Source: Dehalococcoidia bacterium (GTDB lineage Bacteria; Chloroflexota; Dehalococcoidia; Lucifugimonadales; UBA2985). From it: a stretch of DNA of 64,000 nucleotides. Made by a program: the position numbers and the translations under genes. Shown piece by piece: positions 2,331-24,105 of this stretch. The notes under the pieces are model-generated. The model was not told the origin of the DNA. It saw only the letters and a list, made by a program, of their open reading frames with translations, and ran no database searches. The stretch's first letter is position 1. Each line of letters begins with the position of its first letter. The stretch spans positions 65,738-129,737 of the forward strand of contig DAOUJC010000004.1 in assembly GCA_034423135.1 (NCBI GenBank). The letters run 5' to 3'.

Positions 2331-2356
2331 GGGGAGTCTGAAAGGAGATAACGCGG

Positions 2357-2797
2357 ATGAACGCAACGGGCAAGTTTGTTTGGCTTGGGCTGGGTATCTT
2401 CTTGGGGATTGGCATCGCGGCCGCCATCGGCGTAATGGTCGTCGACTTGCTCATCCCCTGGGAAGACATTTGCCCTATCCTCGGTCCTGCTCAAAGATTG
2501 GCAGAAATTGGAACGGGCCTGATAGCTGAACTTCAGTCTTGGCTAGCGAAGGCGGAGAGTCTCCTACAGACGGGATCGTCGAATGAGGCGAGTGAAGAGG
2601 CAAGATCCGGGCTAGGCGGTATTCTGGATAGGGCGGGGGAGATTGCAGGCGATGTGCGTGATAGCGCTGTCGATATTGTGACCGCTCCGTTGCGGGCACT
2701 AATTGACCTAGGGCAAGAGGTGCTCAGAGCAGTACAAGAGGCGGTTGACGCGGCGCGTAATGTCATAGCGACCATAGAAGAGGCACGCTGTGAGTAG
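2357..2797 (+). CDS. hypothetical membrane-anchored protein
   Basis: 146-aa ORF with one N-terminal hydrophobic helix (FVWLGLGIFLGIGIAAAIGVMVV) and a helical Ala/Glu-rich C-terminus. A GGAG lies upstream of the ATG. Local G+C is lower than the flanks. I recognise no family. Confidence 0.45.
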   Translation: MNATGKFVWLGLGIFLGIGIAAAIGVMVVDLLIPWEDICPILGPAQRLAEIGTGLIAELQSWLAKAESLLQTGSSNEASEEARSGLGGILDRAGEIAGDVRDSAVDIVTAPLRALIDLGQEVLRAVQEAVDAARNVIATIEEARCE

Positions 2798-2833
2798 TGT
2801 CAAGCTCCCTGACTAGCCGCTGCGGCAGGGCTA

Positions 2834-2873
2834 TTGCAAGAGGCGGGCGCAATGTGCTATCATATTGATAGCA
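2834..2873 (+). promoter_or_regulatory. candidate promoter plus palindromic operator of vapBC-1
   Basis: TTGCAA (2834-2839), an 18-nt spacer, then TATCAT (2858-2863). A perfect inverted repeat TGCTATCA-TAT-TGATAGCA (2855-2873) overlaps the -10 and lies 19 nt upstream of the antitoxin ATG. Confidence 0.4.
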
Positions 2874-2891
2874 GAGGGTCAAGGAGGCGAA

Positions 2892-3155
2892 ATGGGGACT
2901 CTCAATGTTCGGCGTCTTGATGATGACGTGCTCAGGCGGCTGAAGCTTCGCGCCGCTGAGAACAACCGCTCCCTGGAGGGCGAGGCCAGACACATCCTTG
3001 AGCAGGCAGTCCTGACTGCGCCGGGTTTGTCCGACCGGAGAAGATCGTTCATCGAACTGGCAGCCCGCCTGAGAAAGGAAACCGAAGGCACCTACCAGAC
3101 CCCCGGCGCGCTGCTCATTAGAGAGGCTCGCGACAGCGATTACCAGCTTTCGTGA
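2892..3155 (+). CDS. vapB: ribbon-helix-helix antitoxin (VapB/FitA-like)
   Basis: AAGGAGG (2881-2887) precedes the ATG at 2892. The sequence MGTLNVRRLDDDVLRRLKLRAAENNRSLEGEARHIL is typical of Arc/MetJ-type antitoxins. There is a 4-nt overlap with the downstream PIN gene. Confidence 0.75.
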   Translation: MGTLNVRRLDDDVLRRLKLRAAENNRSLEGEARHILEQAVLTAPGLSDRRRSFIELAARLRKETEGTYQTPGALLIREARDSDYQLS

Positions 3156-3589
3156 TGCGGTTGGTAGTTGACGCAAGCGTGGCCGTCAAGTGGCTGGTCG
3201 CGGAGGAAGACTCTGAGCTGGCTCTTCGCGTTCTGCACAGCGACCATGAGTTGCTCGCGCCGCGGCTCATGGCCTCTGAGGTGAGCGGCGCTCTGACGCG
3301 CAAGGTCCGCAGGGGGCAGTTGGAGCGCAGCCAAGCCGCGGAGATTGCTGCCTCCATCCCGGAGATGGTTGACGCGTGGGCCGCTGACGATGGCATCGTT
3401 CCCGACGCCGTCCGCTTGTCTCTGGCTCTGGACCTGCCCATTTACGACTGCGTCTACCTGGCGCTGGCGCTCAATGAGGGAGGCATCATGGTCACGGCCG
3501 ATGTCCGTTTCGTGAACGCCGTCGCTCGTACAGAGCACCGAGAAGACGTGCTCTCCCTGGAAGCGTTTGAGGGGCTTGTGCTGGAGTGA
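3152..3589 (+). CDS. vapC: PIN-domain toxin (VapC family)
   Basis: LVVDASVAVKWL carries the first acidic residue, and later acidic positions are present (DCVYLALA, VTADVRF). The size (145 aa) and coupling to an RHH gene fit the family. Confidence 0.85.
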   Translation: MMRLVVDASVAVKWLVAEEDSELALRVLHSDHELLAPRLMASEVSGALTRKVRRGQLERSQAAEIAASIPEMVDAWAADDGIVPDAVRLSLALDLPIYDCVYLALALNEGGIMVTADVRFVNAVARTEHREDVLSLEAFEGLVLE

Positions 3590-3685
3590 CGTTGCGGCAC
3601 GCCTACAGGGGCATTCGTTGAGTGTGCCAGTTGTTGCAGGATTGACGCGCCTGTGCCTTGCTTCACCTGTCGGTAGGCGCCTGAC

Positions 3686-4438
3686 GTGAACGCCCCTGGA
3701 GACGACCTGCGCCGCGCCTTCCTGGCCGGGCTGCGGCAGGTGGCTACTGCCTTCTTCATCCTGGCCGTGCCTGTATTTCTGCTGACCACCAACGTACGCC
3801 TGGCCTTCGACAGCCTGGCGCTCTATCGCTACGGCTTCGAGCAGTACGACGTGACCACCACCACGGGCCTCAGCATGGATCAGCTCATGGACGTGGCAAC
3901 CGAGGTCCGCGACTACTTCAACTCCCCGGACGAGCTGCTGGACGTGCAGGTGACGCTGGCCGGAGAGGTGCGGCCCCTCTTCAACGAGCGCGAGATACTC
4001 CACATGCGGGACGTGAAGGGGCTTGTGCGGGCCGTGCACGCGGTGCAGGCGCTTTCCGGCGCGTACCTGCTTGGCTATGCGGGAGTTGTGATGGGGTTCG
4101 GGCGATGGAGCGGCGCGCGTGCGGTTGCGCGACGGCTGGCGATGGGGTGCTTATCCGCCGTGCTGCTGCTCGCCGTGGGTGGACTGTCGACGCTGGTGGG
4201 CTTCGACCAGCTATTCTACAGGTTTCACGTCATCAGCTTTGCCAGCGGCACGTGGACGTTTGACCCGCGGTACAACTACCTGACAAGGCTGTTCACGGAG
4301 GGGTTCTTCATGCAGGCCGCGCTGATTGTGGCAGCCGCGGTGATAATCGAGGCGATCGTGCTGGCGGCCGCGTCACTGGTCGCGATGAGGTGGCTTTCGA
4401 GGCGTGAGTCAGCTGCGACCGGGGAGTCTCGGCGCTAG
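3686..4438 (+). CDS. integral membrane protein, DUF1461/TIGR01906-like
   Basis: GTG start. N-terminal TM segment, an extracytoplasmic region with YRYGFEQYDV and EREILHMRDVKGL, then three C-terminal TM helices. The family assignment is from memory of that architecture. Confidence 0.55.
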   Translation: MNAPGDDLRRAFLAGLRQVATAFFILAVPVFLLTTNVRLAFDSLALYRYGFEQYDVTTTTGLSMDQLMDVATEVRDYFNSPDELLDVQVTLAGEVRPLFNEREILHMRDVKGLVRAVHAVQALSGAYLLGYAGVVMGFGRWSGARAVARRLAMGCLSAVLLLAVGGLSTLVGFDQLFYRFHVISFASGTWTFDPRYNYLTRLFTEGFFMQAALIVAAAVIIEAIVLAAASLVAMRWLSRRESAATGESRR

Positions 4439-4439
4439 G

Positions 4440-4688
4440 CTAGCAGACGAAGCTACCGACGTCGCCGCAGCCGCAGGCGTCGTGGCCGTCATCGCAGCCG
4501 CCGCTGGTCACGCCAACCGGCATCAACTCGCCTCCCGGCGCCTTCGTGATCGCCGCGAACATCGAGAGCACCCTGGTCGAGGGGATGCCGCATTCCGGGC
4601 AGTCCGCAGGCTCGTCGAATGCGTCCATGGGGCGCATGCGCTCGAAGAGGATCTGGCAGGGGGGGCAGGAGTACTCGTAAATCGGCAT
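4440..4688 (-). CDS. FmdB-family zinc-ribbon protein
   Basis: MPIYEYSCPPCQ...CPECG is the CxxC-x(n)-CxxC ribbon. A Gly/Cys/Asp-rich tail follows. Confidence 0.8.
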   Translation of the reverse strand: MPIYEYSCPPCQILFERMRPMDAFDEPADCPECGIPSTRVLSMFAAITKAPGGELMPVGVTSGGCDDGHDACGCGDVGSFVC

Positions 4689-4765
4689 CGTGCTACCTCG
4701 CTTGTTGGCTTCCCCGATTCTACCGAACTGTGCCGTGCGCGGTCAAGGCGTCTTCAGCTGCTCCA

Positions 4766-4840
4766 GTTCACCATGAGCGGGCGCGCCACAGATTGCGAAA
4801 GCCCGCTCATATGGTTCGACGGGCTCACCATGAGCGGGTC
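4766..4840. repeat. interspersed hairpin repeat, family 1 (core GGTTCGACRGGCTCACC between CCCGCTCA and TGAGCGGG)
   Basis: ATGAGCGGG (4773-4781), CCCGCTCAT (4802-4810) and ATGAGCGGG (4829-4837) form two consecutive stem-loops. The second loop contains GGTTCGACGGGCTCACC. Confidence 0.8.
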
Positions 4841-4882
4841 GGGGTGTGCCGAGCCGCCTGGAGCAGCGCGCTCGCTGCTCCC

Positions 4883-5449
4883 TCAGCGTCTCCGTCGTGC
4901 CGGCCGGCGCGCCGATCCACCGGCAGTCGTACGCCTGATGTACCACGCCGCGGAAATCAGGATGGGCAGCGCGGCGATGACCACCGCCACAACTCCCCAG
5001 TTGACGCTGCCGGAGCTCACCTGCACGGGGAACTCGACAACAGTCGAATCCTCGCCCTGGGAAATGTCCACCGCGAAGCTCCACTCGCCATCCTGAGGTA
5101 GCCTGATGTTCAGGTCGTACCAGTTGAGGGCTGCGGTTGTAGGCTCAGCGTTGACCGGCCCCACGGACAGCGAGTCCGGAGCGGGGCCGGTTGCCCGCGC
5201 CCACACGGATGCGTCGTTGACCGGAATCAAGTTGTCCGCCGACTCCACCACCACTGACATGTGCAGGTTGCCCACTCGTGGCGTCGGCGGCGAAACCCTG
5301 ATCTGCACGCGGTAGGGTCCCTGCGTCGTGTCGAGGATGGACACGGTCTGGCCGTTGGCGCTGGCCGGCGATACAGGCGCGACGAGCCACGCGGCCATCA
5401 CGGGCAGTGCGACGAGGAGCGCGAATGCGGCCTTTCTCAAGGGTTGCAA
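4883..5449 (-). CDS. secreted FixH/YtkA-like protein with C-terminal membrane anchor
   Basis: Signal peptide (ALLVALPVMAAWLVAPVSPASA), a beta-rich middle region, a C-terminal TM helix and an Arg-rich tail. It lies downstream of the copA-YHS genes on the same strand. The fold assignment is tentative. Confidence 0.45.
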   Translation of the reverse strand: MQPLRKAAFALLVALPVMAAWLVAPVSPASANGQTVSILDTTQGPYRVQIRVSPPTPRVGNLHMSVVVESADNLIPVNDASVWARATGPAPDSLSVGPVNAEPTTAALNWYDLNIRLPQDGEWSFAVDISQGEDSTVVEFPVQVSSGSVNWGVVAVVIAALPILISAAWYIRRTTAGGSARRPARRRR

Positions 5450-5607
5450 AGAGGCACCTGAGGGGACGTGGATCGCAGCTTGAGTTGCACGCGCAGTCGC
5501 GTATCGTCCGGGCTGGGCGAGGATGGAGCTAGGGGTTGCGTCATGCTGCGCATTTTACATGGGCGCGGCGCGTCGCCGCAAGGCCGCCGGCGGCGCAGCG
5601 GAGCGCG

Positions 5608-5811
5608 CTACATCTCGATGCGCTTTTCGCCGGACAGGTACGCCTCCGGCTCCCGCGAGAAGGCGACTCGGCAGCCCGGCGCGCAGAAGTAGTAGGTCTG
5701 CCCATCGTGGTCGTGCGTGCCACCGCGGGGAGACTTCATGTCCACCTCCATGCTGCACACCGGGTCGATTGCTGAGTCGCCGCGACCTCTGACCAGTAGA
5801 GGTATCCTCAT
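5608..5811 (-). CDS. YHS/TRASH-domain metal-binding protein
   Basis: DPVCSMEVD...[15 protein letters not shown]. The ATG overlaps the copA stop by 4 nt. Confidence 0.8.
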
Positions 5812-8327
5812 GACGAGACCTCCGGACTTCGATTTCGTGTTCCCCTGTAACGCTGCAGCCTGAGGGAGTTGCTCACCACGCTGAACGAACTGAGGGCCAT
5901 GGCCGCCGCGGCCATCATGGGGTTGAGGAAGCCGTGCTCGCCCAGGAGCGGCTGAAGCGCCGCCGGCACGTCGCCGGTGAAGAAGGGGTAGAGCACTCCC
6001 GCCGCCAGCGGAATCAGCGCCGTGTTGTAGAAGAAGGCCCAGAACAGGTTCTGGCGAATCACTCGCATGGTTGCCCTGCTGAGGTCCAGAGCGCCGGCGA
6101 TGCCGTGCAGGTCGTCCCGCACCAGGGTGATGTCCGCGGCCTCCATTGCCACGTCCGCGCCTGCGCCTATGGCGATACCCACGTTGGCCTGAGCCAGCGC
6201 GGGGGCGTCGTTGATCCCGTCGCCCACCATTGCCACGGTTGCGTCTGCTTCCTGCAGCTCGCGAATAGCGCTCGCCTTGCCGCCCGGAAGGACGTCGGCC
6301 ACCACCCGCTCAATGCCCACGTCCGCGGCGATAGCCTCCGCCGTACGTCGGTTGTCGCCCGTCAGCATGACCACGTCGAGGCCCATGCCGCGCAGCGTGC
6401 GGACGACCTCGGCGGCCTCCGGCCTCGGCGAGTCCGCGACGGCAATGACGCCGATGGCCCGCCCGTCGAGTGCGACGAACACCGGCGTCCTGCCCATAGC
6501 GGATAGGCGTGCTTCCTCCGGCTCAAGGCCGTTCAGGTCGCAGTCCAGCTCACGCATGAGCGCCAGGTTGCCAAGCGCGACCGACTCGCCGCCCACTGTG
6601 GCTCGGATACCGCGACCGGGGATGGCCTGGAAGTCTCGGACCTCTTCGAGGGCGAGGCCGCGCTTTTCTGCCGCGGCCAGGATCGCGTCGCGCAGCGGGT
6701 GCTCGGAGCCGCGCTCCGCGGACGCCGCAAGTGTCAGCAGTCGATCCTCGGACACGCCGGAGACCGCGACCTCAGTGACCCTGGGCCTGCCCAGCGTGAG
6801 CGTTCCGGTCTTGTCGAGCACCACGGTGTCCACGCGGTGGGCCGTTTCCAGCGATTCGGCGCTGCGTATGAGTATGCCACGCTCGGCGCCCTTGCCCGTA
6901 CCCGCCATGATGGCCGTGGGCGTGGCGAGACCCAGCGCACAGGGGCAGGCGATGACCAGCACAGCGACCATGTTGAGAAGCGCGTAGATGTGCGCGGGCG
7001 ATGGCCCGGCCAGAAGCCACACGAGGAACGTGGCCAGCGCAATGCCGATCACCACCTGCACGAACCAGCCGGAGACCACGTCCGCGAGACGCTGGATCGG
7101 CGCCTTGGATCCCTGCGCGTCCTGCACCATGCGGATGATGCCGGCCAGCGCCGTTGCCGCGCCGACCCTGGTTGCGCGCAGTTGGAAGCTGCCCGTGCCG
7201 TTCAGCGTGGCGCCATACACGGGCGAGTCGACCGTCTTCTCGACAGGGACACTCTCGCCTGTGAGCATGGACTCGTCCACGGAGGATGCGCCCTGCACCA
7301 CGACGCCGTCGACGGGAAGCCTCTCGCCAGGTCTAACCACCACCACGTCGCCGGGGACCACGTCTTCCACTGGTACGCTCGCCTCTGCGCCATCGCGCAG
7401 TATGGTGGCATGCCTGGGCTGAAGGCCCATCAGCTTGCGTATCGCCTCGGAGGTGCGGCCCTTCGCACGGGCCTCCAGGTAGCGCCCGAACAGGATGAGC
7501 GCGATTATGATTGCCGCCGTATCGAAGTAGACCTTGGCGTCCGCCTGCTCCACGCTGAGCGCGTCCGGGAAGAGCGTGGCCGCCGCGCTGAACGCGTAAG
7601 CTACGCTGGTGCCCACTGCGATGAGGGTGTTCATGTTGGCGGTGCGGTGCTTCAGGCCGCCCCATGCGCCGTGGTAGAACTGCCAGCCCGCCCACAGCTG
7701 CACAGGTGTGGCCAGCGCCCACAGCGTGTACCAGTTCTGCAGGAATGACGGCACCCACGGGAACAGCTCGCGGAAGCTGCCGAGGAAGATGACAAGGCCA
7801 AGGGTGGACGCCACGAGCGTCCGTCGCCGCAGCCCGGCGATTTCGCGGGTGCGGGCCAGCCGTTCCGCGTCGTGGCTCGACTCGTCGCCAGCCACGCCCT
7901 CCACGGAGTAGCCTGCGTCGCTCACGGCATAGCGCATGTCAGGCAGCGCGGCCAAGCCCGGCAGGTACTCAACTTTGGCCTGCTCGGAAGCCAGGTTGAC
8001 GTTCGCTGAAAGGACGCCCTCCACGTCGCGCAGGGCGTGCTCAACGTGTACCACGCAGGCCGCGCATGTCATGCCGCCCACGTTGAGCGTGATGATCGCA
8101 AGGCCGGTGCGGTATCCGGAGTCGTCCACGGCGCCAATCAGGTCATTGAGCGATGCTTGGCCGCCGTCGAACTCGACCGTGGCTTCCTCCGAGGCAAGGT
8201 TCACGTTGGCCGATACCACGCCTGCGACATCCTTGAGTGCCCCCTCGACGTGGGAGACGCAGGCGGCGCAGGTCATGCCCTCAACGGGTAGGACTACCCT
8301 GCGCAGTTCAGATGTCTTGGCTGTCAT
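5808..8327 (-). CDS. copA: copper-translocating P1B-type ATPase
   Basis: Two N-terminal GMTCAACV heavy-metal-binding motifs, a CPC motif ([12 protein letters not shown]), DKTGT and GDGINDAP. I prefer the ATG at 8327, which has GGGAG upstream. The alternative start at 8363 would overlap thiI. Confidence 0.95.
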
Positions 8328-8352
8328 GTCATAGACTCCCGGCGCGCTCGCG

Positions 8353-9618
8353 TTACGTACCATTATCCGACTTCGCGCCGATGCTGTCCACGCCGCGCCC
8401 GGCGGCCACAGCGGCAGGCCAGGGCGATGCGCCGGACGCCGTGACTATCCGCATCTCTGCTTGCTCCACAGCCCTCGCGACCAGCGCTGGCACGTCAAGC
8501 GCCGATTCCAGCCGCTCGATTTCGGCAGCGTTGGTGCGCGTGGCAGGGTGGCGCGGCGTGAACAGGGAGCAGCAGTCCTCGTCCGGCAGAATCGAGATGT
8601 GGAAGGTGCCGATTCGCCGCGCCTCGTCGATGATCTCCTGCTTGTCCGTGCCAATGAGCGGGCTGAGAATGGGAAGCGTCGCTGCGCTGCGCACCGTGGC
8701 GAGGTTCTCAAGTGTCTGCGACCCAACCTGGCCGAGGCTCTCGCCGGTCACTAGCGCCGCAACTCCGTGCTCCATCGCAATCCTCTCCGCGATGCGGGTC
8801 ATGAACCTCCGGTACACTACCACGCGGTAGGGCGGAGGCACGGACAGGATGATCTCACGCTGCACGTCCGCAAACGGCACCAGGAACAGCGTGGAGCGGA
8901 ACTGGTGCCGGCTGAGAAGCTCCGCAAGCTCCAACGCCTTCTCCCTGGAGGAGCCGTCGACGAGGGGGAAGCTGTGGAAGTGCACGAACATCACCTGGCA
9001 GCCCCGCTTCATCATGCGCCAGGCCGCCACCGGGGAGTCGATGCCGCCGGACATGAGCGCGGCGACGCGGCCGCCGGAGCCGACGGGCAGGCCGCCCGGC
9101 CCCGGCATCTCGCGCAGGTACACCAGCGTCTCCCGCGGCGTGACCTCCACGAAGATGGTGACGTCCGGCTCGCGCAGGCTCACGCGCGCACCAGTCAGTC
9201 GCTCGACGAAGCCGCCCAGCCTGCTGTTGATCTCCAGCGACGTGAGGGGAAATGCCTTGTCCGACCGCTTGGCCGTGATACGGAAGGTGTCAAAGTCCAG
9301 CCCGTCTACCTCGCTCAGCAGCGCCGCCTCAATGGCCTCCAGCGAACGGGAGACCTTGCGGCATCGGTAGAACTTGACCACTCCGAAGACTCGGCCGATT
9401 CGCTCGGCGACCTCCGGCCAGGCCGAGTCCGGCACCGGCGAGACCTCTACGCCGAGGTGCTTGCGCTCCACGCGCTGGACGGACGTGCCTCGGAGGGCCA
9501 GCCTGAGGTTGCGCTCCAGCCGCTGGAAGAAGTGCGGGCGGTTCTTGCCCTTCAGGGCGATCTCGTGGACCCTGACCATCACGGAGTCCGGCGGGCGTTG
9601 TGTGTCGAGAGTGGTCAT
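8353..9618 (-). CDS. thiI: tRNA 4-thiouridine(8) synthase
   Basis: N-terminal ferredoxin-like/THUMP region and PP-loop [11 protein letters not shown]. The 421-aa length is typical of ThiI without a rhodanese domain. Confidence 0.88.
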
Positions 9619-16852: not shown

Positions 16853-17075
16853 TTGGAGTTGGTGAATTGGCCGCGCAGCGTGAAGGGGCTGAGAAAGCCG
16901 CTGCCGAGAATTCCAGGCGCTTCGAACTCAGATACGGCATGGACGGATGAGGCGGAAGACCTGATGGAGCGCCCGGCCCGGCGCTGCCAGCTTGCCGGAG
17001 CGGCTGGCCACGCCCGACACACTGGCGAACGGCTCTCTTGTACTTCGCGGCCTACGGTGGTTGGAAGCAGGGCGG

Positions 17076-17414
17076 CTATCGCATTGCGCGTTCAGCGGTG
17101 AAACAGTCGCTGCAGTACACGGGCCTGCCCAGCCTGGGCTGGAATGGCACTTCCGCGTCGCGGCCGCAGGTGGCGCATACTATGGCGTGCATCACGCGGG
17201 GCGCGCCTTCTTCGCTAGTTCGTGACCTACGGCGAGCCGCGCGGCACTGGGGGCAGCGGCTGGGCTCGTTGAGAAGTCCTCGCTTCTGGTAAAAGTCCTG
17301 TTCGCCCTCGGTGAACAGGAACTCGACTCCACACTCTCTGCAAACCAGACTCTTATCACTCAAACCGACGGGTCCTCCTCGGAGAATTCTGGGCCGCTTG
17401 ATCGACCGGTACAT
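17076..17414 (-). CDS. double zinc-ribbon protein (CxxC-x17-CxxC type)
   Basis: CRECGVEFLFTEGEQDFYQKRGLLNEPSRCPQC and CATCGRDAEVPFQPRLGRPVYCSDC. The start is uncertain (17414 or 17462). Confidence 0.6.
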   Translation of the reverse strand: MYRSIKRPRILRGGPVGLSDKSLVCRECGVEFLFTEGEQDFYQKRGLLNEPSRCPQCRAARRRSRTSEEGAPRVMHAIVCATCGRDAEVPFQPRLGRPVYCSDCFTAERAMR

Positions 17415-17631
17415 CGATGCCCAGAACCCCGGAGAAGGACCTTCCGAGCCGCGTCGTAGCATTCCATGTGATATAGAATGCGGTGTTAGTGGGCGAGTCT
17501 ATCATCGAAAACCGTGCGCGTCAAGAGCGCCAAGCGGGGATTGTTGACGCTCAGGGAGCCTGCAACGGCGTTTGGCGGCCGAATGGGTGCGTCGGATTGC
17601 CAATTCACCCCAGATGTGGGACAATGCGTGT

Positions 17632-18516
17632 ATGAGAATTGGCGCGTTCCAGCTAATCGACCCCATCCCCGAGTTCAAGGATCTCCACGCCATCGCCTTG
17701 CTTCATCCTTGGGTGGACGCTGGCAGCGTGGGCACCATGGCCCTGGAGCGGCTGGAGAACCACTTCGGCGCGCAGGAGCTCGGAAAGCTCCACAGGCCCG
17801 GAAGCTTCTTCGACTTTACGCGATATCGACCAACGTCGAAGTTCGTGGAGGGCGAGCGAGTCATCGTGGTACCCAACACCAACGTCTACTACGCGCTGCA
17901 GGATGAGGGCCCCGACTTCCTGTTCATACATCTCATGGAACCTCACGCCTTCGCGGAGAGGTACGTCAAGTCCGTGGTGGAGCTGCTCAAGGCGCTGGAC
18001 GTGAAGAGGTACTGCCGCATCAGCGGCATGTACAACGCCGTTCCTCACACCCGACGCTTGCGAATCACTGGCTCTCCGGAGCTGGAGAAGATGCCGCAGA
18101 TGGCCGGGCTCATCACCCCGCGCCGGGCTACCGGGGGCTACCAGGGCCCAACGAGCATCATGAACTCGCTGACGGACGAGCTGGAGAAGCTGGGCACGGA
18201 AATGATCAACTTCATGGTGCACCTTCCCCACTACCTGAGCCTGGATGAGGATTACCAGGGAACGGCCAGGCTGATGGAGGTGCTGTGCGCGCTCTACGAC
18301 CTGCCGTCCGATCTTGTGGAGGCGGATCTGGGGGTGAGCCAGTACCAGGACGTGGGCAACCGCGTTGAGAAGAACCTCCAGGTGAAGGCTCTCGTGTCGA
18401 AGCTGGAGGAGTACTACGACGACCAGCAGGAGGAGCCGGAGCAGGAGGAGGAGTCTCCTCCGCTGGCGCCCGGCGTGGAAAACTTCCTCCGCGAGATGGG
18501 CATCCGCCTGGACTAG
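17632..18516 (+). CDS. PAC2 (proteasome assembly chaperone 2-like) family protein
   Basis: HAIALLHPWVDAGSVGTMALERLENHF and FFDFTRYRPTSKF match the PAC2 W-DAG and D-x-RP pattern. The C-terminal tail is acidic. I chose the ATG at 17632 over the longer ORF from 17572. Confidence 0.7.
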   Translation: MRIGAFQLIDPIPEFKDLHAIALLHPWVDAGSVGTMALERLENHFGAQELGKLHRPGSFFDFTRYRPTSKFVEGERVIVVPNTNVYYALQDEGPDFLFIHLMEPHAFAERYVKSVVELLKALDVKRYCRISGMYNAVPHTRRLRITGSPELEKMPQMAGLITPRRATGGYQGPTSIMNSLTDELEKLGTEMINFMVHLPHYLSLDEDYQGTARLMEVLCALYDLPSDLVEADLGVSQYQDVGNRVEKNLQVKALVSKLEEYYDDQQEEPEQEEESPPLAPGVENFLREMGIRLD

Positions 18517-18646
18517 GCGCAGCTTCCCGCAATCCGCAGTTCGGAATAGTCAGCAGAGTTCCTCCAGGCGGTCGGGGATCGCGGCTTCAACGTAAGCCTG
18601 ACAAGACACTGCTTCCGGGCTGTCTCCTGCTATACCAGCATACGTC

Positions 18647-19327
18647 ATGAACTCCACACCTCTAGACGGTCTCAGCGGCGACTACCTCTGGCGCAGGGAG
18701 GAATCCGAGGGTAGCTCCTACCCGAACAACCTACGTCTGAGGGTGCATCGCGCCATCAGCTGGATCCAGCGCGCGGAGATGGCCGCAATCGACGGCGACC
18801 CGGACGTTGCCTTCACCTGCTACTGGATCGCGTTCAACGCCGCATACGCCGAAGATACGGCCTACGCAGCCGAGGTTACGGCTCGGGACCTGTTCAGAAA
18901 CTACATCGACAGGATCCTGAGGCTCGATGATGAAGGTGTGATTTATAGCGCCGTATGGAATCGATTCTCGGAACTGGTCAACGACCTGCTGAGCAACAGG
19001 TACGTGTACGAGCCGTTCTGGAAGCACCAGAACGGTGTATCGGGGTTCGATGACTGGGAAGAGCGCCTTCGATACGGCATGCAGTCGATAAACCAGGCTC
19101 GCGCCGGACAGAAGACCGATGCGCTGCTGGCTACATTGTTCGACCGCCTGTACGTGCTGAGGAATCAGATCCTGCACGGCGGCGCAACCTGGAACAGCAG
19201 CGTCAACCGCAAGCAGGTGGATGACGGCGCTGCGATAATGGCGTTCATGATTCCGGCCTTCGTCAGTGTCATGATGGACCACCCGGACGAGCCGTGGGGC
19301 GCCAACCACTATCCCGTTGTGGAGTAG
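18647..19327 (+). CDS. all-helical protein with a HEPN-type R-N-x3-H motif (putative RNase effector)
   Basis: 226-aa ORF. LRNQILHG gives R172/H177 (nt 19160-19177) in the C-terminal third, as expected for the Rx4-6H HEPN signature. The rest looks helical. I recognise no specific subfamily. Confidence 0.6.
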   Translation: MNSTPLDGLSGDYLWRREESEGSSYPNNLRLRVHRAISWIQRAEMAAIDGDPDVAFTCYWIAFNAAYAEDTAYAAEVTARDLFRNYIDRILRLDDEGVIYSAVWNRFSELVNDLLSNRYVYEPFWKHQNGVSGFDDWEERLRYGMQSINQARAGQKTDALLATLFDRLYVLRNQILHGGATWNSSVNRKQVDDGAAIMAFMIPAFVSVMMDHPDEPWGANHYPVVE

Positions 19328-19435
19328 TGAGCCACTGAACTGCGCTGTGGGGAGCACTCAGTAGGCTCCTGGGAAGCACCAACTGGGACCCTATGACCAC
19401 ATGGAGTCTATTGTGAACCGGATGGAGGCATCGAG

Positions 19436-20125
19436 ATGATCATCGTGATTTCATGCGCCGGAAGCAAGGCCGCGAGCGCAGGCAGGATGCGGACGCCGGA
19501 CGGCAGGCCGGTCGAGATCGTGGCGCACCCGCAGCTGATGCAGGAGTCACGGATCGACCCCAACCTCGTCTACGTTTCACCGGACGATCAGTCCGGCTTC
19601 GGCGTGACCTGGCGGGAGAAGCTGGCAAGTTACAACGAAGCGTACAGGCGCACAGGCGGCAACCCCCACGAACTGCTGCCCGCCTTCCGGCTGTACAAGA
19701 ACCGGGTCTATCGTGATCTGGTCGAGAAGTTCGAGCCGGAGAGCGTGTTCATCCTCGCGGCCGGATGGGGGCTCATCCGGTCCGACTACCTCACACCGCA
19801 ATACGACATCACCTTCTCCAGCATGGCGCCGCCCGCGGAAAGGCGGGACTACGCTAGTGACGACGGCTTCAGTGACTACAATGCTCTGGCAGACGTCGAA
19901 GGCCCATTGAACGGCCCTGTTGTCTGCGTTGCCAGCCAAGCCTACCTCCCGTTGTTCCACAAACTGACCGAATCACTCGACTGCGAGAAGCTGGCGTTCT
20001 TCGTCACTAATGTTCCCCCTGATCTTCCCGGGTGCAAGCCAGTGAGATACGACGTCAAGGGAATGGCAAACAACTGGCAGTACAGATGCGCCCGCGACCT
20101 CATTGACGGCAAGCTGGAAGTGTAG
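19436..20125 (+). CDS. DUF6884 / YaaA(DUF328)-like protein
   Basis: 229 aa. The N-terminal strand MIIVISCAGSK plus LPAFRLYKNRVYRDL and VFILAAGWGLIRSDYLTPQYDITFS follow the pattern I recall for DUF6884 (xxCxxxK ... LY ... ILSAkhGL ... PYD.T). YaaA has a related ISPAK ... LSGLYGVLRP ... PY pattern. Confidence 0.5.
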   Translation: MIIVISCAGSKAASAGRMRTPDGRPVEIVAHPQLMQESRIDPNLVYVSPDDQSGFGVTWREKLASYNEAYRRTGGNPHELLPAFRLYKNRVYRDLVEKFEPESVFILAAGWGLIRSDYLTPQYDITFSSMAPPAERRDYASDDGFSDYNALADVEGPLNGPVVCVASQAYLPLFHKLTESLDCEKLAFFVTNVPPDLPGCKPVRYDVKGMANNWQYRCARDLIDGKLEV

Positions 20126-20422
20126 ATGCCTCTGATTTGCCCGCTCCGTTCGGTGCTACGCTCAAGAGTCTTCCGCTGAGCCAGGGCCGCGCTACTTCCC
20201 ACTCCTAATTCTCGTTCAGAAACACGTGGGACCATTAAGGAGGAAATGGAGGGGCCATCCTGGAGGTGAGCTAAAGCAAGAGGAGGCCCCTCATGCGGGT
20301 AGTTGGGCTACCCAAGGTATTGCATCAAGCCGGCCTCGGCGAGAACCACTGCGGAGTCGCTCAGCGACGAAGCGAGAGTGACATAGGGCGCACTGAGCCT
20401 GTGCGGGAGGTTCAAGTGCTGG

Positions 20423-20516
20423 GATAGTGGCGTTCATTATTCCGGCCTTCGTCGGCGTAATGATGAGCCACCCGGATCAGCCTTGGGGCGTCAACCACTT
20501 TCCTGTTGTGGAGTAG
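20423..20516 (+). pseudogene. remnant 3' end of a paralog of the HEPN-motif gene
   Basis: 94 nt align without gaps to 19234-19327, with 81 of 94 identical by hand. In frame it reads IVAFIIPAFVGVMMSHPDQPWGVNHFPVVE-stop, versus IMAFMIPAFVSVMMDHPDEPWGANHYPVVE-stop. Homology fades upstream of about 20415 and there is no upstream ORF. Confidence 0.8.
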
Positions 20517-20584: not shown

Positions 20585-21277
20585 CTATCTTCTCTTGTGT
20601 ACTCTGTACAAAGCGCAGTCCATGAACGCGTAAATGCCGGATCGCGGGCTGGGTAACTCTACTTTTGTCCAGCCCTTGGTTCGGATTGCTTCAAGATTGC
20701 GTTCATCTGCGAGGGCTTTCATGGCCCTTTCCACCTCTCTTGTTCCTGTAGCCTCGTAGTCTTTCCTGGTTGGCCACTGTACTTTGAATTCTCTCTTGAT
20801 GGCCTTCTCGTTTTCGTTTACCGAGTTAGGCTCTCGAACGATCATATCCCCGCTCCTGTCTACTGGATAGCACCCGATTGGTGTGATCAGGCAATAGGCT
20901 ATGACTGCCCCGGCATCAAGCACGGCTTTGAGCGAGTCCATATCCTTGGGTAGATGCTCCTTCTTGCGTGTCTTGTTGTTGATCCCGTCTTGATTGGTGA
21001 ACGGAGTCTTGACTTCAACAGCAAAGACAATCTCAGTGTCCCTCAGTGCCACTATGTCGCGCCTAAAGCTTCCCTGGCGGTGTTGCCGTCTTAGTTGGAG
21101 ATCTGCACCGTTCCACCTCTGCTCGCCCAAGAGACGACAGAATTCATCTTCTACGGTGCGCTCATGCTGTCCATTTGGCTGCTCAGCAATCTTGCCAAGA
21201 GGGTGTGAAGTTCCGATCCAGGTGACCAGACCATCGAATGCCTCGCCAACTTGCCTGTCTATTTCTGCCAACCTCAT
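20585..21277 (-). CDS. PD-(D/E)xK-like nuclease-fold protein
   Basis: GGGAGG lies 10 nt upstream of the ATG at 21277. HERTVEDEF, then RRDIVAL, 7 residues, then IVFAVEVK (nt 21008-21058) fits an E...D...ExK restriction-endonuclease-like core. Local G+C is about 50 percent. Confidence 0.5.
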   Translation of the reverse strand: MRLAEIDRQVGEAFDGLVTWIGTSHPLGKIAEQPNGQHERTVEDEFCRLLGEQRWNGADLQLRRQHRQGSFRRDIVALRDTEIVFAVEVKTPFTNQDGINNKTRKKEHLPKDMDSLKAVLDAGAVIAYCLITPIGCYPVDRSGDMIVREPNSVNENEKAIKREFKVQWPTRKDYEATGTREVERAMKALADERNLEAIRTKGWTKVELPSPRSGIYAFMDCALYRVHKRR

Positions 21278-21448
21278 CGAAATTTCGCCTCCCACTAAGT
21301 CTTCCCATAAACAAAGTAGATTGCATGATAACATCTCTAAGGCGCGTTCAATCCCACACCTGTGTGCTTTGCGCCATGTATCGATCTATGATACACTTTG
21401 CGCGAGTGAGCGCCACGTGGAGGATTCCAACTTGCTCAGGGATTACAA

Positions 21449-21685
21449 ATGCCGACTGTGGTCATTGACGGACAGTTCCGTTTTGTCGTCAACACCAAAG
21501 AGAACAGCTTCGAGCCTCCTCACGTACACGTCTGGGTTGGCGGTGAGGATGTGTGCCGCATCGAGTTGAACGGAGGGACCTATATGGACGATCCTCCACC
21601 CGGCAACTTCAGGGACATTATGCGGGTGTACGCAAGGTATGCAGAGGACATCAGAAGCACGTGGGACGCAATTCACGGAGGTTAG
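21449..21685 (+). CDS. DUF4160-domain protein (toxin-like partner of DUF2442)
   Basis: 78 aa. FRFVVNTKENSFEPPHVHVWVGGEDVCRIEL matches the DUF4160 E-PPH-H pattern. Confidence 0.8.
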   Translation: MPTVVIDGQFRFVVNTKENSFEPPHVHVWVGGEDVCRIELNGGTYMDDPPPGNFRDIMRVYARYAEDIRSTWDAIHGG

Positions 21686-21690
21686 CCGGT

Positions 21691-22203
21691 GTGAACGCCG
21701 TTTTGGTAAAGAACGCCAACAGGATGATGATGGTAGCCGGTCTGTGGGGCGATGGAATTGAGGTTAGCTTCGCAGACGGGTGCAGGGGACTGATACCCTT
21801 TGCCGTGCTGCCCGAGGTCGAGGGGGGAGCGAGCTTGTCTTCCATCGAGCTACCAAACCCGTATGAGATGATCCTGGAGACTGCCGGGGGAGATCGTATA
21901 GAGGTGCCCTGGGACTTCGCACGCCACTACTGCGACGAGTCCTATCGGCCAATGGTAGAGGCGATGGCTATGCAAGGTCGGCAGACACTCGGTCAGCGCA
22001 TCCGCCGGCTCAGGAAGGCGGCGGGCTTTACCCAGGAAACCCTAGCCCGCGCGGCGGACGTTGGTAGAGTTACCCTGGTACGGCTCGAAAACGGGGAGCA
22101 GACGCCCAGGTACAGCACACTGAGCGCAATTGCAGGGGCACTTGGCAGGAACGTCCAAGAGCTTCTGGTGGACTCGGAGTTGCTCCCTAGCTCCGCGCCT
22201 TGA
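21691..22203 (+). CDS. DUF2442 domain fused to an XRE-type helix-turn-helix
   Basis: The GTG at 21691 is 9 nt after GGAGG and 5 nt after the DUF4160 stop. GIEVSFADGCRGLIPFAVLP is DUF2442-like. LGQRIRRLRKAAGFTQETLARAADVGRVTLVRLENGEQTPRYSTLSAIAGAL is a classic HTH_XRE. Confidence 0.75.
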   Translation: MNAVLVKNANRMMMVAGLWGDGIEVSFADGCRGLIPFAVLPEVEGGASLSSIELPNPYEMILETAGGDRIEVPWDFARHYCDESYRPMVEAMAMQGRQTLGQRIRRLRKAAGFTQETLARAADVGRVTLVRLENGEQTPRYSTLSAIAGALGRNVQELLVDSELLPSSAP

Positions 22204-22235
22204 CGCACGTTGCCGCATGTGCTAGTGTTCCCGCT

Positions 22236-22500
22236 AACGGCGAAGACGGAGACGAGTAGGGAGGCCTCCCTCGTTCAGCGAGCCTGGTACGGTGCAAGCA
22301 GGCATGAAGGGCCCTCCCGAATATCCCTCCTGAGCCGCCCGCCGAACGCCCCAGAGGGGCTTGTAGACCGGGCCGGGGTCGCTCCCGTTAGAAGAGGCGC
22401 GGGCGTGTTGGCGCCTAGTCATCAGAGTGCTCCGCTTGTCGGGGAATAAGGGTGGTACCGCGGGTCTTTGTGTCCCGTCCCTTTGGGGGCGGGATTTTTG
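22236..22500 (+). ncRNA. T-box leader (tRNA-sensing riboswitch) upstream of cimA
   Basis: Stem I elements are AGACGAGUA (22249-22257), a distal CAGCGAGCCUGGUACGGUGCAAGC, and the 3' side of the specifier loop GAAUAUCC (22319-22326). The canonical T-box sequence AAUAAGGGUGGUACCGCGGG is at 22446-22465. A terminator hairpin and U-run follow. Confidence 0.8.
22472..22498 (+). terminator. T-box terminator hairpin
   Basis: GTCCCGTCCC-TTTG-GGGGCGGGAT followed by TTTTTG, 20 nt upstream of the cimA ATG. Its 5' arm can alternatively pair into the antiterminator with the T-box sequence. Confidence 0.7.
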
Positions 22501-22518: not shown

Positions 22519-24105
22519 ATGGAGATACAGCTTTATGACACAACGTTGAGGGACGGCGCTCAGCAGGAGGGGATTTCACTCTCCGCTGAGGACAAGGTCA
22601 AGATTACCCAGAGGCTGGATGAACTGGGAGTCCACTACGTGGAGGGCGGCTGGCCGGGCTCCAACCCCAAGGACGCTGAGTACTTTCGGCGAGTGAAGGG
22701 CCTGTCGCTCTGTAACGCGCAGGTCGCGGCCTTCGGTAGCACGCGTAGAGCGGGTGTCCGCGTGGAGGACGACGGCAACGTGCAGGCGCTCATGGCGGCC
22801 GAAACGCCGGTCGTCACGCTGGTGGGCAAGAGCTCCGACCTCCATGTACACAAGGTGCTGGAGACCACGCTGGAGGAGAACCTCGCCATGATCGCCGATA
22901 CCGTGGCCTACTTCAAGCGCCACGGCCGCACCGTCTTCTACGATGCCGAGCACTTCTTCGACGGGTACAAGGCGAACGCCGATTACGCGCTCCAGACGCT
23001 CTGCGCCGCCGCCGATGCCGGCGCCGACTGCCTGGTGCTGTGCGACACTAACGGCGGACTCCTCACCGGGGAACTCACGGAGATTGTGGCCCGCGTTCGC
23101 AGCGAGCTCCCAACGCCACTGGGCATCCACTGCCACAACGACGCCGACGTGGCCGTTGCCAACTCGCTCGCCGCGATCATGGCGGGCGTGGTACAGGTGC
23201 AGGGCACCATCAACGGCTACGGCGAACGCTGTGGCAATGCCAACCTGCTTTCCGTCATCGCCAATCTCAAAGTGAAAATGGGCATCGACTGCGTCACCGA
23301 CGAACAGCTGGCTGGCCTGGCGGAGACCTCGCACTACGTCAGCGAGATCGTCAACATTCCGCCCAACGGGCAGCAGCCCTACGTTGGAGCGAGTGCATTC
23401 AGCCACAAGGGAGGCCTGCACGCGGCGGCGGTCGCCAAGATAGAGGAGAGCTACCAGCACATCTCACCGGAGCGCGTCGGTAACGCGAATCGCGTGGTGA
23501 TCTCGGAGCTGTCAGGCCGCGGAAACATCCAGATGCGCCTGCGCGAGCTTGGCCTCGCTGAGCGCGTTAGCCGCGACCAGGTGGGAGCTCTCCTGGAGCG
23601 CCTGAAGGAGCAGGAGAGCAAGGGGTTCCAGTACGAGGGCGCGGAGGCCTCATTCGAGCTGATGGTGAGGCGCAGCCTAGAGGGGTACCAGCCTCCCTTC
23701 GATCTTCTGGAGTTGATGGTGCTGGTGGAGGACCGCCGCGGCGGCTTGCAGAACGGCCACGAGGAGATGATGTCCGAGGCGGTGGTCAAGGTGAAGGTGG
23801 GGTCGCAGATGTTGCACACGGCCGCGGAGGGCAACGGCCCGGTGAACGCGATGGACAACGCCCTGCGAAAGGCGCTGCTGGAGTTCTACCCGTCGCTGGA
23901 CGCCGTGCGGCTGATCGACTACAAGGTGCGCGTGGTAGACCAGGGCCAGGACACTCGGGCAGTCGTGCGTGTGCTCATCGAGTCGACGGACGGGCGAGGT
24001 CAGTGGCAGACAGTCGGCTCATCCGGCAACATCATCGAGGCCAGTTGGACGGCTCTGGCGGACAGCCTGGAATACTTCCTGCTGCACCACAACGGGGAGT
24101 CCTGA
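22519..24105 (+). CDS. cimA: (R)-citramalate synthase (LeuA/CimA family)
   Basis: LYDTTLRDGAQQEG, HCHNDADVAVANSLAA, and a C-terminal LeuA-dimer-type regulatory domain. The 528-aa length and N-terminus resemble the CimA clade more than LeuA. Confidence 0.85.
   Translation: MEIQLYDTTLRDGAQQEGISLSAEDKVKITQRLDELGVHYVEGGWPGSNPKDAEYFRRVKGLSLCNAQVAAFGSTRRAGVRVEDDGNVQALMAAETPVVTLVGKSSDLHVHKVLETTLEENLAMIADTVAYFKRHGRTVFYDAEHFFDGYKANADYALQTLCAAADAGADCLVLCDTNGGLLTGELTEIVARVRSELPTPLGIHCHNDADVAVANSLAAIMAGVVQVQGTINGYGERCGNANLLSVIANLKVKMGIDCVTDEQLAGLAETSHYVSEIVNIPPNGQQPYVGASAFSHKGGLHAAAVAKIEESYQHISPERVGNANRVVISELSGRGNIQMRLRELGLAERVSRDQVGALLERLKEQESKGFQYEGAEASFELMVRRSLEGYQPPFDLLELMVLVEDRRGGLQNGHEEMMSEAVVKVKVGSQMLHTAAEGNGPVNAMDNALRKALLEFYPSLDAVRLIDYKVRVVDQGQDTRAVVRVLIESTDGRGQWQTVGSSGNIIEASWTALADSLEYFLLHHNGES

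Follow-up and report, generated by a model that had tools for sequence, protein, structure and literature searches.

Proteins of the DUF6884 family are defined by two motifs, CxxxK and LSAxxG, and are related to the DNA-binding protein YaaA; a base-flipping pocket has been proposed for them, and one member, YfjM, binds DNA lesions (PMC11701544). A DUF6884-like protein (M57A) and a GIY-YIG_3-like protein (M57B) together make up PDC-M57, itself an untested PADLOC candidate. The primary sequence signature of HEPN RNases is Rx4-6H with a polar residue after the arginine (PMC3710099; Anantharaman et al. 2013), the HEPN protein ApeA has been described as a ligand-gated single-gene defence (bioRxiv 10.64898/2026.01.26.701840), and WYL regulators accompany defence islands (PMC9122601). 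Here we consider two genes that lie side by side in a stretch of 64,000 nucleotides (nt) of contig DAOUJC010000004.1 from a Dehalococcoidia bacterium (the window): gene A, for an all-helical HEPN-like protein, and gene B, for a DUF6884/YaaA-like protein, which together occupy positions 18647-20125. The initial annotation had proposed that they form an undescribed HEPN + DUF6884 conflict module. Our analysis instead favours, with a probability of about 0.6, two accessory cassettes that are independent of each other and occupy the same recombination hotspot, just 3' of a PAC2-family gene. Each of the two belongs to a known, experimentally uncharacterised kind, and they are probably neighbours rather than a new two-gene defence system.

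Independence of A and B is indicated by the absence of B from all metagenomic A loci surveyed, by the other partners that each gene has elsewhere and by the turnover of the slot in which they lie. The survey covered 80 metagenomic loci encoding A homologues of 42-55% identity, 42 of which extend at least 1 kb on each side of A, and scanning them with purpose-built hidden Markov models (HMMs) of the A, B and GIY families returned no relative of B or of GIY (0/80). B was likewise missing from the seven viral contigs in IMG/VR that encode A-family proteins (L104-L110; 0/7) and from eight further Dehalococcoidia A loci (0/8; ±5-6 kb read around A, three with gene calls). Three plasmid regions were inspected; no B relative is present in the two that carry an A relative, and A is absent from the one that carries a B relative. 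A without B is also found in L006, L008-L010, L011 and L012. The A-B adjacency is restricted to one Dehalococcoidia lineage and to the slot just 3' of PAC2.

Outside this lineage, the true conserved partners of the A family are a WYL-WCX regulator (BrxR/CapW-like) and a TM0106 RecB-like nuclease-helicase, which constitute its dominant context outside Dehalococcoidia. Clustering of neighbours revealed two recurrent genes, one for a regulator of ~327 residues with HTH-WYL-WCX architecture, usually directly 5' of A on the same strand, and one for a protein of ~1,100 residues, usually divergent from the regulator, which combines a PD-(D/E)xK-like region, RNase_H_2 and a superfamily 1 helicase (AAA_11/AAA_12) and is identified by NCBIfam TIGR03491 as "TM0106 family RecB-like putative nuclease". 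Among the 54 A loci whose upstream sequence extends over 1.3 kb or more, the WYL family is present in 33 (in 22 directly upstream on the same strand) and the TM0106-type helicase in 30. Plasmids annotated by the Prokaryotic Genome Annotation Pipeline (PGAP) carry the same trio, in which the TM0106 gene diverges from the WYL-WCX regulator and the A-family HEPN gene follows. A WYL gene and/or helicase fragment adjoins A in three of the seven viral-classified contigs; these contigs may represent islands that are carried by prophages or were misclassified. A-family genes of other phyla are also encountered on conjugative plasmids and close to McrBC or toxin-antitoxin genes. The trio is absent from the systems of PADLOC v2 and may represent a defence module that has yet to be described; its helicase gives partial MkoA/MkoC matches, the A-family member of L084 has no PADLOC match, and a literature search for TM0106 found nothing relevant. 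Neither the WYL nor the TM0106 helicase family occurs within the window. Within Dehalococcoidia, other A genes (about 60% identity) are solitary among housekeeping genes (L117, L118, L119), flanked for example by RadC and GPP34 or by Ldh_2 and a histidine phosphatase.

The relatives of B have partners of their own. The GIY_YIG_3 + DUF6884 combination (PDC-M57) is a tightly coupled pair in several phyla, with hosts in Chloroflexota and Gammaproteobacteria and on other metagenomic contigs. A GIY_YIG_3 gene lies immediately 5' of B in L007, L014, L015, L016, L018, L102 and L103, its end adjoining or overlapping the B start (by 4 nt in L016, L102 and L103), and such a gene is upstream of B in all relatives that are distant enough and have usable context, the exceptions being L101 (partial gene) and the Roseomonas plasmids; in L100 the pair is split by an insertion sequence. 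Assignment of these genes to GIY_YIG_3 (PF26468) rests on precomputed matches and on PADLOC matches to PDC-M57B, which cover nearly the full model (E 1.6e-78 and 1.5e-86), and the B-family proteins match PDC-M57A weakly (2e-5 to 1e-5). Since the GIY genes match PDC-M57B, the B family already figures in a catalogued candidate system as its sensor-like half; the other half is missing from the window, where no GIY family member was found in 64 kb by tblastn or HMM. Gene B differs from PDC-M57 also in size, with 229 residues against the 138 positions of the M57A model, of which only 47 residues align. A literature search for PDC-M57 and for YfjM with GIY-YIG found nothing relevant. On a plasmid of Roseomonas sp. 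FDAARGOS_362 (L116, 3572-8672), a B-family DUF6884 gene comes last in an overlapping operon, after a TM0106 nuclease-helicase gene and then a gene for a 319-residue hypothetical protein that carries a PD-(D/E)xK-like motif; the TM0106 helicase family hence accompanies the A family and the B family in different genomes. The A family is absent from the distant B loci L014, L016, L100-L103, L113 and L116. Further genes near these loci are those for HEPN_Swt1, NucS_C and RAMA beside the pair in L016, those for DUF499, SMC/Metallophos and UvrD-PDDEXK in L100, an HNH endonuclease gene convergent with the operon in L116, and a TM0106 helicase gene truncated by an IS6 element in L113. With the two families unlinked elsewhere, and with B's family forming half of a candidate that PADLOC already lists, the proposal of a conserved and uncatalogued module largely fails by the standards its proposers had set, namely linkage in other genomes and absence from the catalogues.

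The region 3' of PAC2 holds six or more kinds of gene content, and is clearly being rewritten by recombination, with PAC2-A-B as one exchangeable segment. Relics of A (A'), comprising about 32-40 codons of its 3' end, are present in the window, in L018 (3554-3652) and in L015 (5132-5245); the best match of the window's relic is the resident A clade (75%) when compared with the L007 and L011 alleles, which says nothing about the origin of the relic. From 17003 to 20126, where the stop codon of B lies, the window shares 97% identity with L018; beyond it the two are unrelated, with only the relics matching (82%). The A' relic and the break of homology exactly at the B stop codon suggest that the adjacency arose by cassette gain and replacement, and together with the differing slot contents they bear out the cassette turnover suspected initially. 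In L115 (9810-12836) an insertion sequence (HTH_28/HTH_32 + rve_3) and a phage major-capsid-like gene lie 3' of A-B, which indicates that mobile elements use the slot.

Both genes are as first described, on the same strand with 108 nt between them, and B is preceded by GGAGG 8 nt 5' of its ATG. Homologue clusters and the ratios of non-synonymous to synonymous substitution rates (dN/dS) within the clade show them to be real genes; pairwise values are 0.10-0.27 for A and 0.21-0.51 for B, compared with 0.03-0.10 for PAC2. A homologues form 1,670 representative clusters at E<=1e-3 (2,898 clusters at 90% identity), mostly 215-245 residues long, and the closest public match is encoded on contig DAOUKJ010000057 of a metagenome-assembled genome (97% protein identity). 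A is thus a member of a very large, experimentally uncharacterised minimal HEPN-like family for which Pfam, NCBIfam and PADLOC offer no dedicated model. Tandem duplication of an A-family gene is seen in L012 (5234-6612), and the A-family proteins P0001 (492 residues), P0004, P0015 and P0111 (534 residues) show two or three A-like stretches or, in one case, an A domain followed by glyoxalase-type domains.

The R-N-Q-I-L-H signature that had been pointed out in A is at the reported position and is conserved in the family, as an Rx4H motif with a polar residue following the arginine. In an alignment of 56 homologues (31-48% identity), R35, W39, W60, R172 and G178 are invariant, N173, Q174 and H177 are at least 90% conserved and N187 and R188 nearly invariant, giving the consensus RLYxLRNQLxHGGATW..VNR. 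The AlphaFold2 model of A is all-helical (predicted local distance difference test (pLDDT) score 93.5) and places the motif at the end of helix 157-176, followed by a loop (177-187) and a final long helix (188-211), which is the helix-loop-helix position given for HEPN in PMC3710099. Source databases give some homologues the name "HEPN domain-containing protein", and for one UniRef has "Apea-like HEPN domain-containing protein"; sub-threshold matches to HEPN_RiboL-PSP (PF18735; best 3.6e-5) and to HEPN_Apea were obtained for 16 and one of the 56, respectively. Searched against PDB sequences, the family profile gave a single match, to the HEPN site of Thr1ApeA (9hxl, E 0.19), with which the R-N-x-x-x-H-G-G of the family aligns; in an hhalign comparison with one Swt1-HEPN protein the motif alone was aligned. 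The window's A protein matched no Pfam (E<=1), PADLOC, NCBIfam or PHROGs model, and a sequence search against PDB chains gave nothing meaningful.

Comparison with described HEPN systems shows both likeness and difference. A apparently can function as a single gene, as ApeA does; however, with 226 residues it lacks the ~300-residue N-terminal ApeA domain, its family passes no curated HEPN model and its structural model shows no likeness in Foldseek to ApeA or to any HEPN structure. A resembles the toxins of HEPN-MNT and other HEPN toxin-antitoxin pairs in being a small HEPN-type protein with an intact catalytic motif, but no nucleotidyltransferase (MNT), RHH, other antitoxin-like or HEPN partner gene adjoins it in a Pfam scan of its neighbours, as had been noticed at the outset, and no nucleotidyltransferase, RHH or antitoxin-like gene does so in the solitary Dehalococcoidia loci.

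Gene B has 27 homologue clusters and is predicted, from its motifs and its structural model, to be a YaaA-fold protein of the DUF6884 type, although it scores below the Pfam threshold (PF21818, 23.3 bits; gathering score 30). Precomputed PF21818 matches exist for most B homologues and are flagged weak or faint. CAGSK represents the CxxxK motif, LAAGWG stands in place of the LSAxxG motif, with alanine for serine, and B also carries TPQYDITF. The motif serine is at least 90% conserved in the B family and is retained in L002, L004, L005 and all distant B relatives, whereas alanine replaces it only in the subclade of the window (window, L001, L017-L019); despite this replacement, dN/dS of B against L001 is about 0.26. 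Foldseek of the AlphaFold2 model (pLDDT 92.4) identified E. coli YaaA (5caj_A, E 7.8e-5, probability 1.00, template modelling (TM) score 0.47) as the sole match below 1e-3, in agreement with the alpha/beta 'cantaloupe' fold of YaaA and with the DUF6884/YaaA-like identity that the initial annotation had given. In PADLOC, B matched PDC-M57A (E 2.2e-5, 22.8 bits, residues 94-140 only) and DpdC (7e-4), both weakly. It shares CxxxK, an LSAxxG-type motif in altered form, the fold and weak DpdC profile matches with the DUF6884/YaaA (DUF328)/DpdC superfamily, from which it differs in its low score, in the serine-to-alanine change of its subclade and in having no Dpd genes nearby. PHROGs gave nothing useful for B, a sequence search against PDB chains gave nothing meaningful, and no member of the family was found on IMG/VR viral contigs. 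In the complete metagenome-assembled chromosome L003, the B gene (6789-7471) is interrupted by a frameshift at about codon 40; it may be a pseudogene, or the frameshift may stem from an indel error in long reads.

Several observations weigh against two independent cassettes. Every known B without a GIY gene adjoins A, in both orders; the A-B gap is about 110 nt in five genomes, and the 1-nt B-A junction of L004/L114 is operon-like. A promoter and terminator scan gave no signal above shuffled expectation and predicted no terminator in the A-B interval. PAC2-A-B moves or sweeps between strains as one unit, and B is under purifying selection in the absence of a nuclease gene. B relatives are paired with different nucleases (GIY-YIG, and the 319-residue PD-(D/E)xK-like protein of the Roseomonas plasmids), so that a swap to HEPN is conceivable. 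The HEPN assignment of A rests on motif, topology, sub-threshold profile matches and source names: with Foldseek, the best PDB match of the A model had E 0.49 and a TM score below 0.25 and was no HEPN entry, and BFVD gave the same outcome, both searches returning helix noise from ABC transporters and BAR domains. That Foldseek matched nothing at all weakens the HEPN assignment without excluding it. On the motif and its helix-loop-helix placement, and with no match at the level of the fold, we hold with moderate-to-good confidence that A is a HEPN-type protein, and by analogy a likely HEPN-type RNase.

Most of these observations would be accounted for by a clade-specific pair, in which B took the HEPN RNase A in place of its GIY-YIG DNase, acts as a sensor of DNA that is foreign or damaged and either licenses A or, like an antitoxin, restrains it, resulting in abortive infection at the RNA level. 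Such a pair is further favoured by the dN/dS of 0.21-0.51 for B without its nuclease partner, by the 97% identity of the A-B block between strains with different downstream content and by the two unrelated nuclease types with which the B family already pairs. The linkage, however, is seen at one locus of one lineage and is inseparable from shared ancestry. Moreover, A lies beside complete GIY-B pairs in L007 and L018 and alone in the same slot in L011, it is solitary elsewhere in the class and never with B in the 80 metagenomic loci, and the window's B is without the conserved motif serine. We therefore regard a clade-specific pair as unlikely, and the more specific proposal of a DUF6884 DNA sensor re-paired with a stand-alone HEPN RNase, as a DNA-sensing, RNA-cleaving two-gene immune module of this lineage only, as slightly less likely again.

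Alternatively, neither gene may have a conflict role, A being a housekeeping HEPN-like protein for RNA processing or RNA binding and B a YaaA/YfjM-like protein for DNA-lesion binding or repair. This would be consistent with the place of A among housekeeping genes in L117-L119, where its position is conserved in two genomes, with the lack of an antitoxin-like partner nearby, with the absence of PADLOC matches for A and their weakness for B, with the HEPN fold of A not being confirmed by Foldseek, and with the ties of YfjM and YaaA to DNA damage or oxidative stress (PMC11701544). It is at odds with the WYL regulators, nuclease-helicases, McrBC, toxin-antitoxin genes and conjugative plasmids that surround the A family elsewhere, with the pairing of B relatives with a PADLOC candidate nuclease and their location near HEPN_Swt1, NucS_C, DUF499, DUF1156 and transposases, and with the faster evolution of A and B relative to PAC2 in a highly variable slot, and we consider it unlikely as well. 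That the partner of B is instead the convergent gene C, in a DUF6884 + PD-(D/E)xK nuclease pair like that of the Roseomonas plasmids, where the 319-residue protein directly precedes B, is very improbable: C gives weak YraN-type matches and its best local alignment to the L116 protein falls on the PD-(D/E)xK-like motifs, but the alignment, with E 24, falls short of significance, the strand of C is opposite to that of B with the A' relic between the two, and the other solo-B genomes (L001-L005, L018) have no C.

If A and B are separate cassettes, as we favour, A would be a self-contained, single-domain HEPN-type protein that requires no adjacent partner, a self-sufficiency suggested by its being so often solitary. 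By analogy with HEPN RNases that have been characterised (PMC3710099), it would dimerise and bring R172, N173 and H177 together in a site for metal-independent endoribonuclease activity. In other phyla A is probably under the control of the WYL regulator, and its position 3' of the WYL-WCX gene and beside the TM0106 nuclease-helicase suggests that its expression may be switched on by a DNA-damage or infection signal. B would bind DNA in a basic cleft, with a flipped base entering the CxxxK/LSAxxG pocket (PMC11701544). In its nearest outgroup relatives, where it is the downstream and translationally coupled half of the GIY-YIG_3 + DUF6884 pair, this activity may be coupled to GIY-YIG cleavage. 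The clade of the window would have lost the GIY nuclease, with B persisting as an orphan under purifying selection; the B of the window may act alone, possibly without catalysis given the serine-to-alanine change in LSAxxG.

The gene order around the pair is PNPase, S15, a zinc-ribbon gene, PAC2, A, B, gene C on the minus strand, DUF4160, HTH_3, a T-box leader and a cimA/leuA-like gene (Table 1). The G+C content is 0.55 at 20-22 kb, lowest at gene C, compared with about 0.61 across A and B and 0.65 in the flanks. Of the neighbours named initially, the DUF4160 gene was recovered. The DUF2442 assignment could not be reproduced for the window's HTH_3 protein, and a faint DUF2442 match (E 0.031) was obtained only for its homologue in L007. 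The DUF4160 + HTH_3 pair also adjoins A in L011 by synteny. Gene C, named initially as a nuclease gene, carries a D...E-V-K arrangement (RRDIVAL...VFAVEVK) typical of PD-(D/E)xK nucleases and has only a weak YraN signal, with no Pfam, PADLOC or PDB sequence match; it occurs in the window and in the near-identical copy L017 only. The T-box leader was scanned for in the window.

Table 1. Features of the window, gene contents of the slot 3' of PAC2 in related genomes, and examples of the partner genes of A and B relatives. CimA denotes the cimA/leuA-like gene and is unlisted where it lies outside the sequence read or where the right flank is non-syntenic (L004/L114).
Locus	Feature or arrangement	Coordinates	Strand	Evidence or remark
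Window	PAC2-family gene	17572..18516	+	Pfam PAC2 3.6e-31; left border of variable slot; adjoins slot in L001-L005, L007, L011, L015
Window	Gene A, 226 aa, all-helical HEPN-like family	18647..19327	+	open reading frame, homologue clusters, dN/dS, AlphaFold2
Window	R172-N-Q-I-L-H177, candidate HEPN Rx4H catalytic motif	19160..19177	+	translation, conservation
Window	Gene B, 229 aa, DUF6884/YaaA-like, 'solo' clade without nuclease partner	19436..20125	+	open reading frame, Pfam, Foldseek
Window	CxxxK motif, C7-A-G-S-K11	19454..19468	+	definition in PMC11701544; C7 and K11 at least 90% conserved in B family
Window	LSAxxG motif as L-A-A-G-W-G, aa 107-112	19754..19771	+	Ser replaced by Ala
Window	A' relic, aa 195-226 and stop of an older A copy (3' end), preceded by in-frame stops	20418..20516	+	tblastn 75% identity over 32 aa, E 1e-12
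Window	Gene C, 249 aa, possibly PD-(D/E)xK-type nuclease	20585..21334	-	open reading frame; weak YraN matches, E 0.07-0.1
Window	DUF4160 gene	21449-21685	+	Pfam 25.3 bits, cutoff 23
Window	HTH_3 gene	about 21691-22203	+	Pfam; gene calls in L017
Window	T-box leader	22234..22485	+	Rfam RF00230, 95.5 bits, gathering score 93, E 1e-20
Window	HMGL-like (CimA/LeuA-type) gene	22519-24105	+	directly 3' of T-box; right border in window, L001, L002, L007, L011, L015
Window, L017	PAC2-A-B-A'-C-DUF4160-HTH-CimA			
L018	PAC2-A-B-A'-GIY-B2...			identical A protein; contig ends within B2
L001, L002	PAC2-A-B-CimA			
L003, L005	PAC2-A-B-...			CimA not within 6 kb read
L115	PAC2-A-B-insertion sequence-phage capsid genes			
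L004/L114	PAC2-B-A, then unrelated genes			1-nt gap between B and A
L007	PAC2-A-GIY-B-HTH-CimA			
L015	PAC2-A'-GIY(split)-B-HTH-CimA			
L011	PAC2-A-DUF4160-HTH-CimA			
L014	GIY_YIG_3 + DUF6884 pair	5305-6675		
L016	GIY_YIG_3 + DUF6884 pair	5273-6654		
L102	GIY_YIG_3 + DUF6884 pair	673-2042		
L103	GIY_YIG_3 + DUF6884 pair	1385-2673		
L084	WYL + TM0106 + A trio	3529-8612		
L047	WYL + TM0106 + A trio			
L053	WYL + TM0106 + A trio			
L075	WYL + TM0106 + A trio			
L111	WYL + TM0106 + A trio	1157-6660		Haematobacter plasmid pOT1-5

A HEPN + DUF6884 system as first proposed would add a defence architecture; the evidence splits it into two separate pieces. Were the re-pairing with HEPN true, it would represent an effector swap between DNase and RNase within one sensor family, not seen elsewhere. 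Gene B indicates that, of the two components of PDC-M57, the DUF6884 protein can be maintained by selection when the nuclease is missing. For an uncultured, streamlined lineage, the locus also provides a clean natural case of one cassette replacing another in a chromosomal hotspot.

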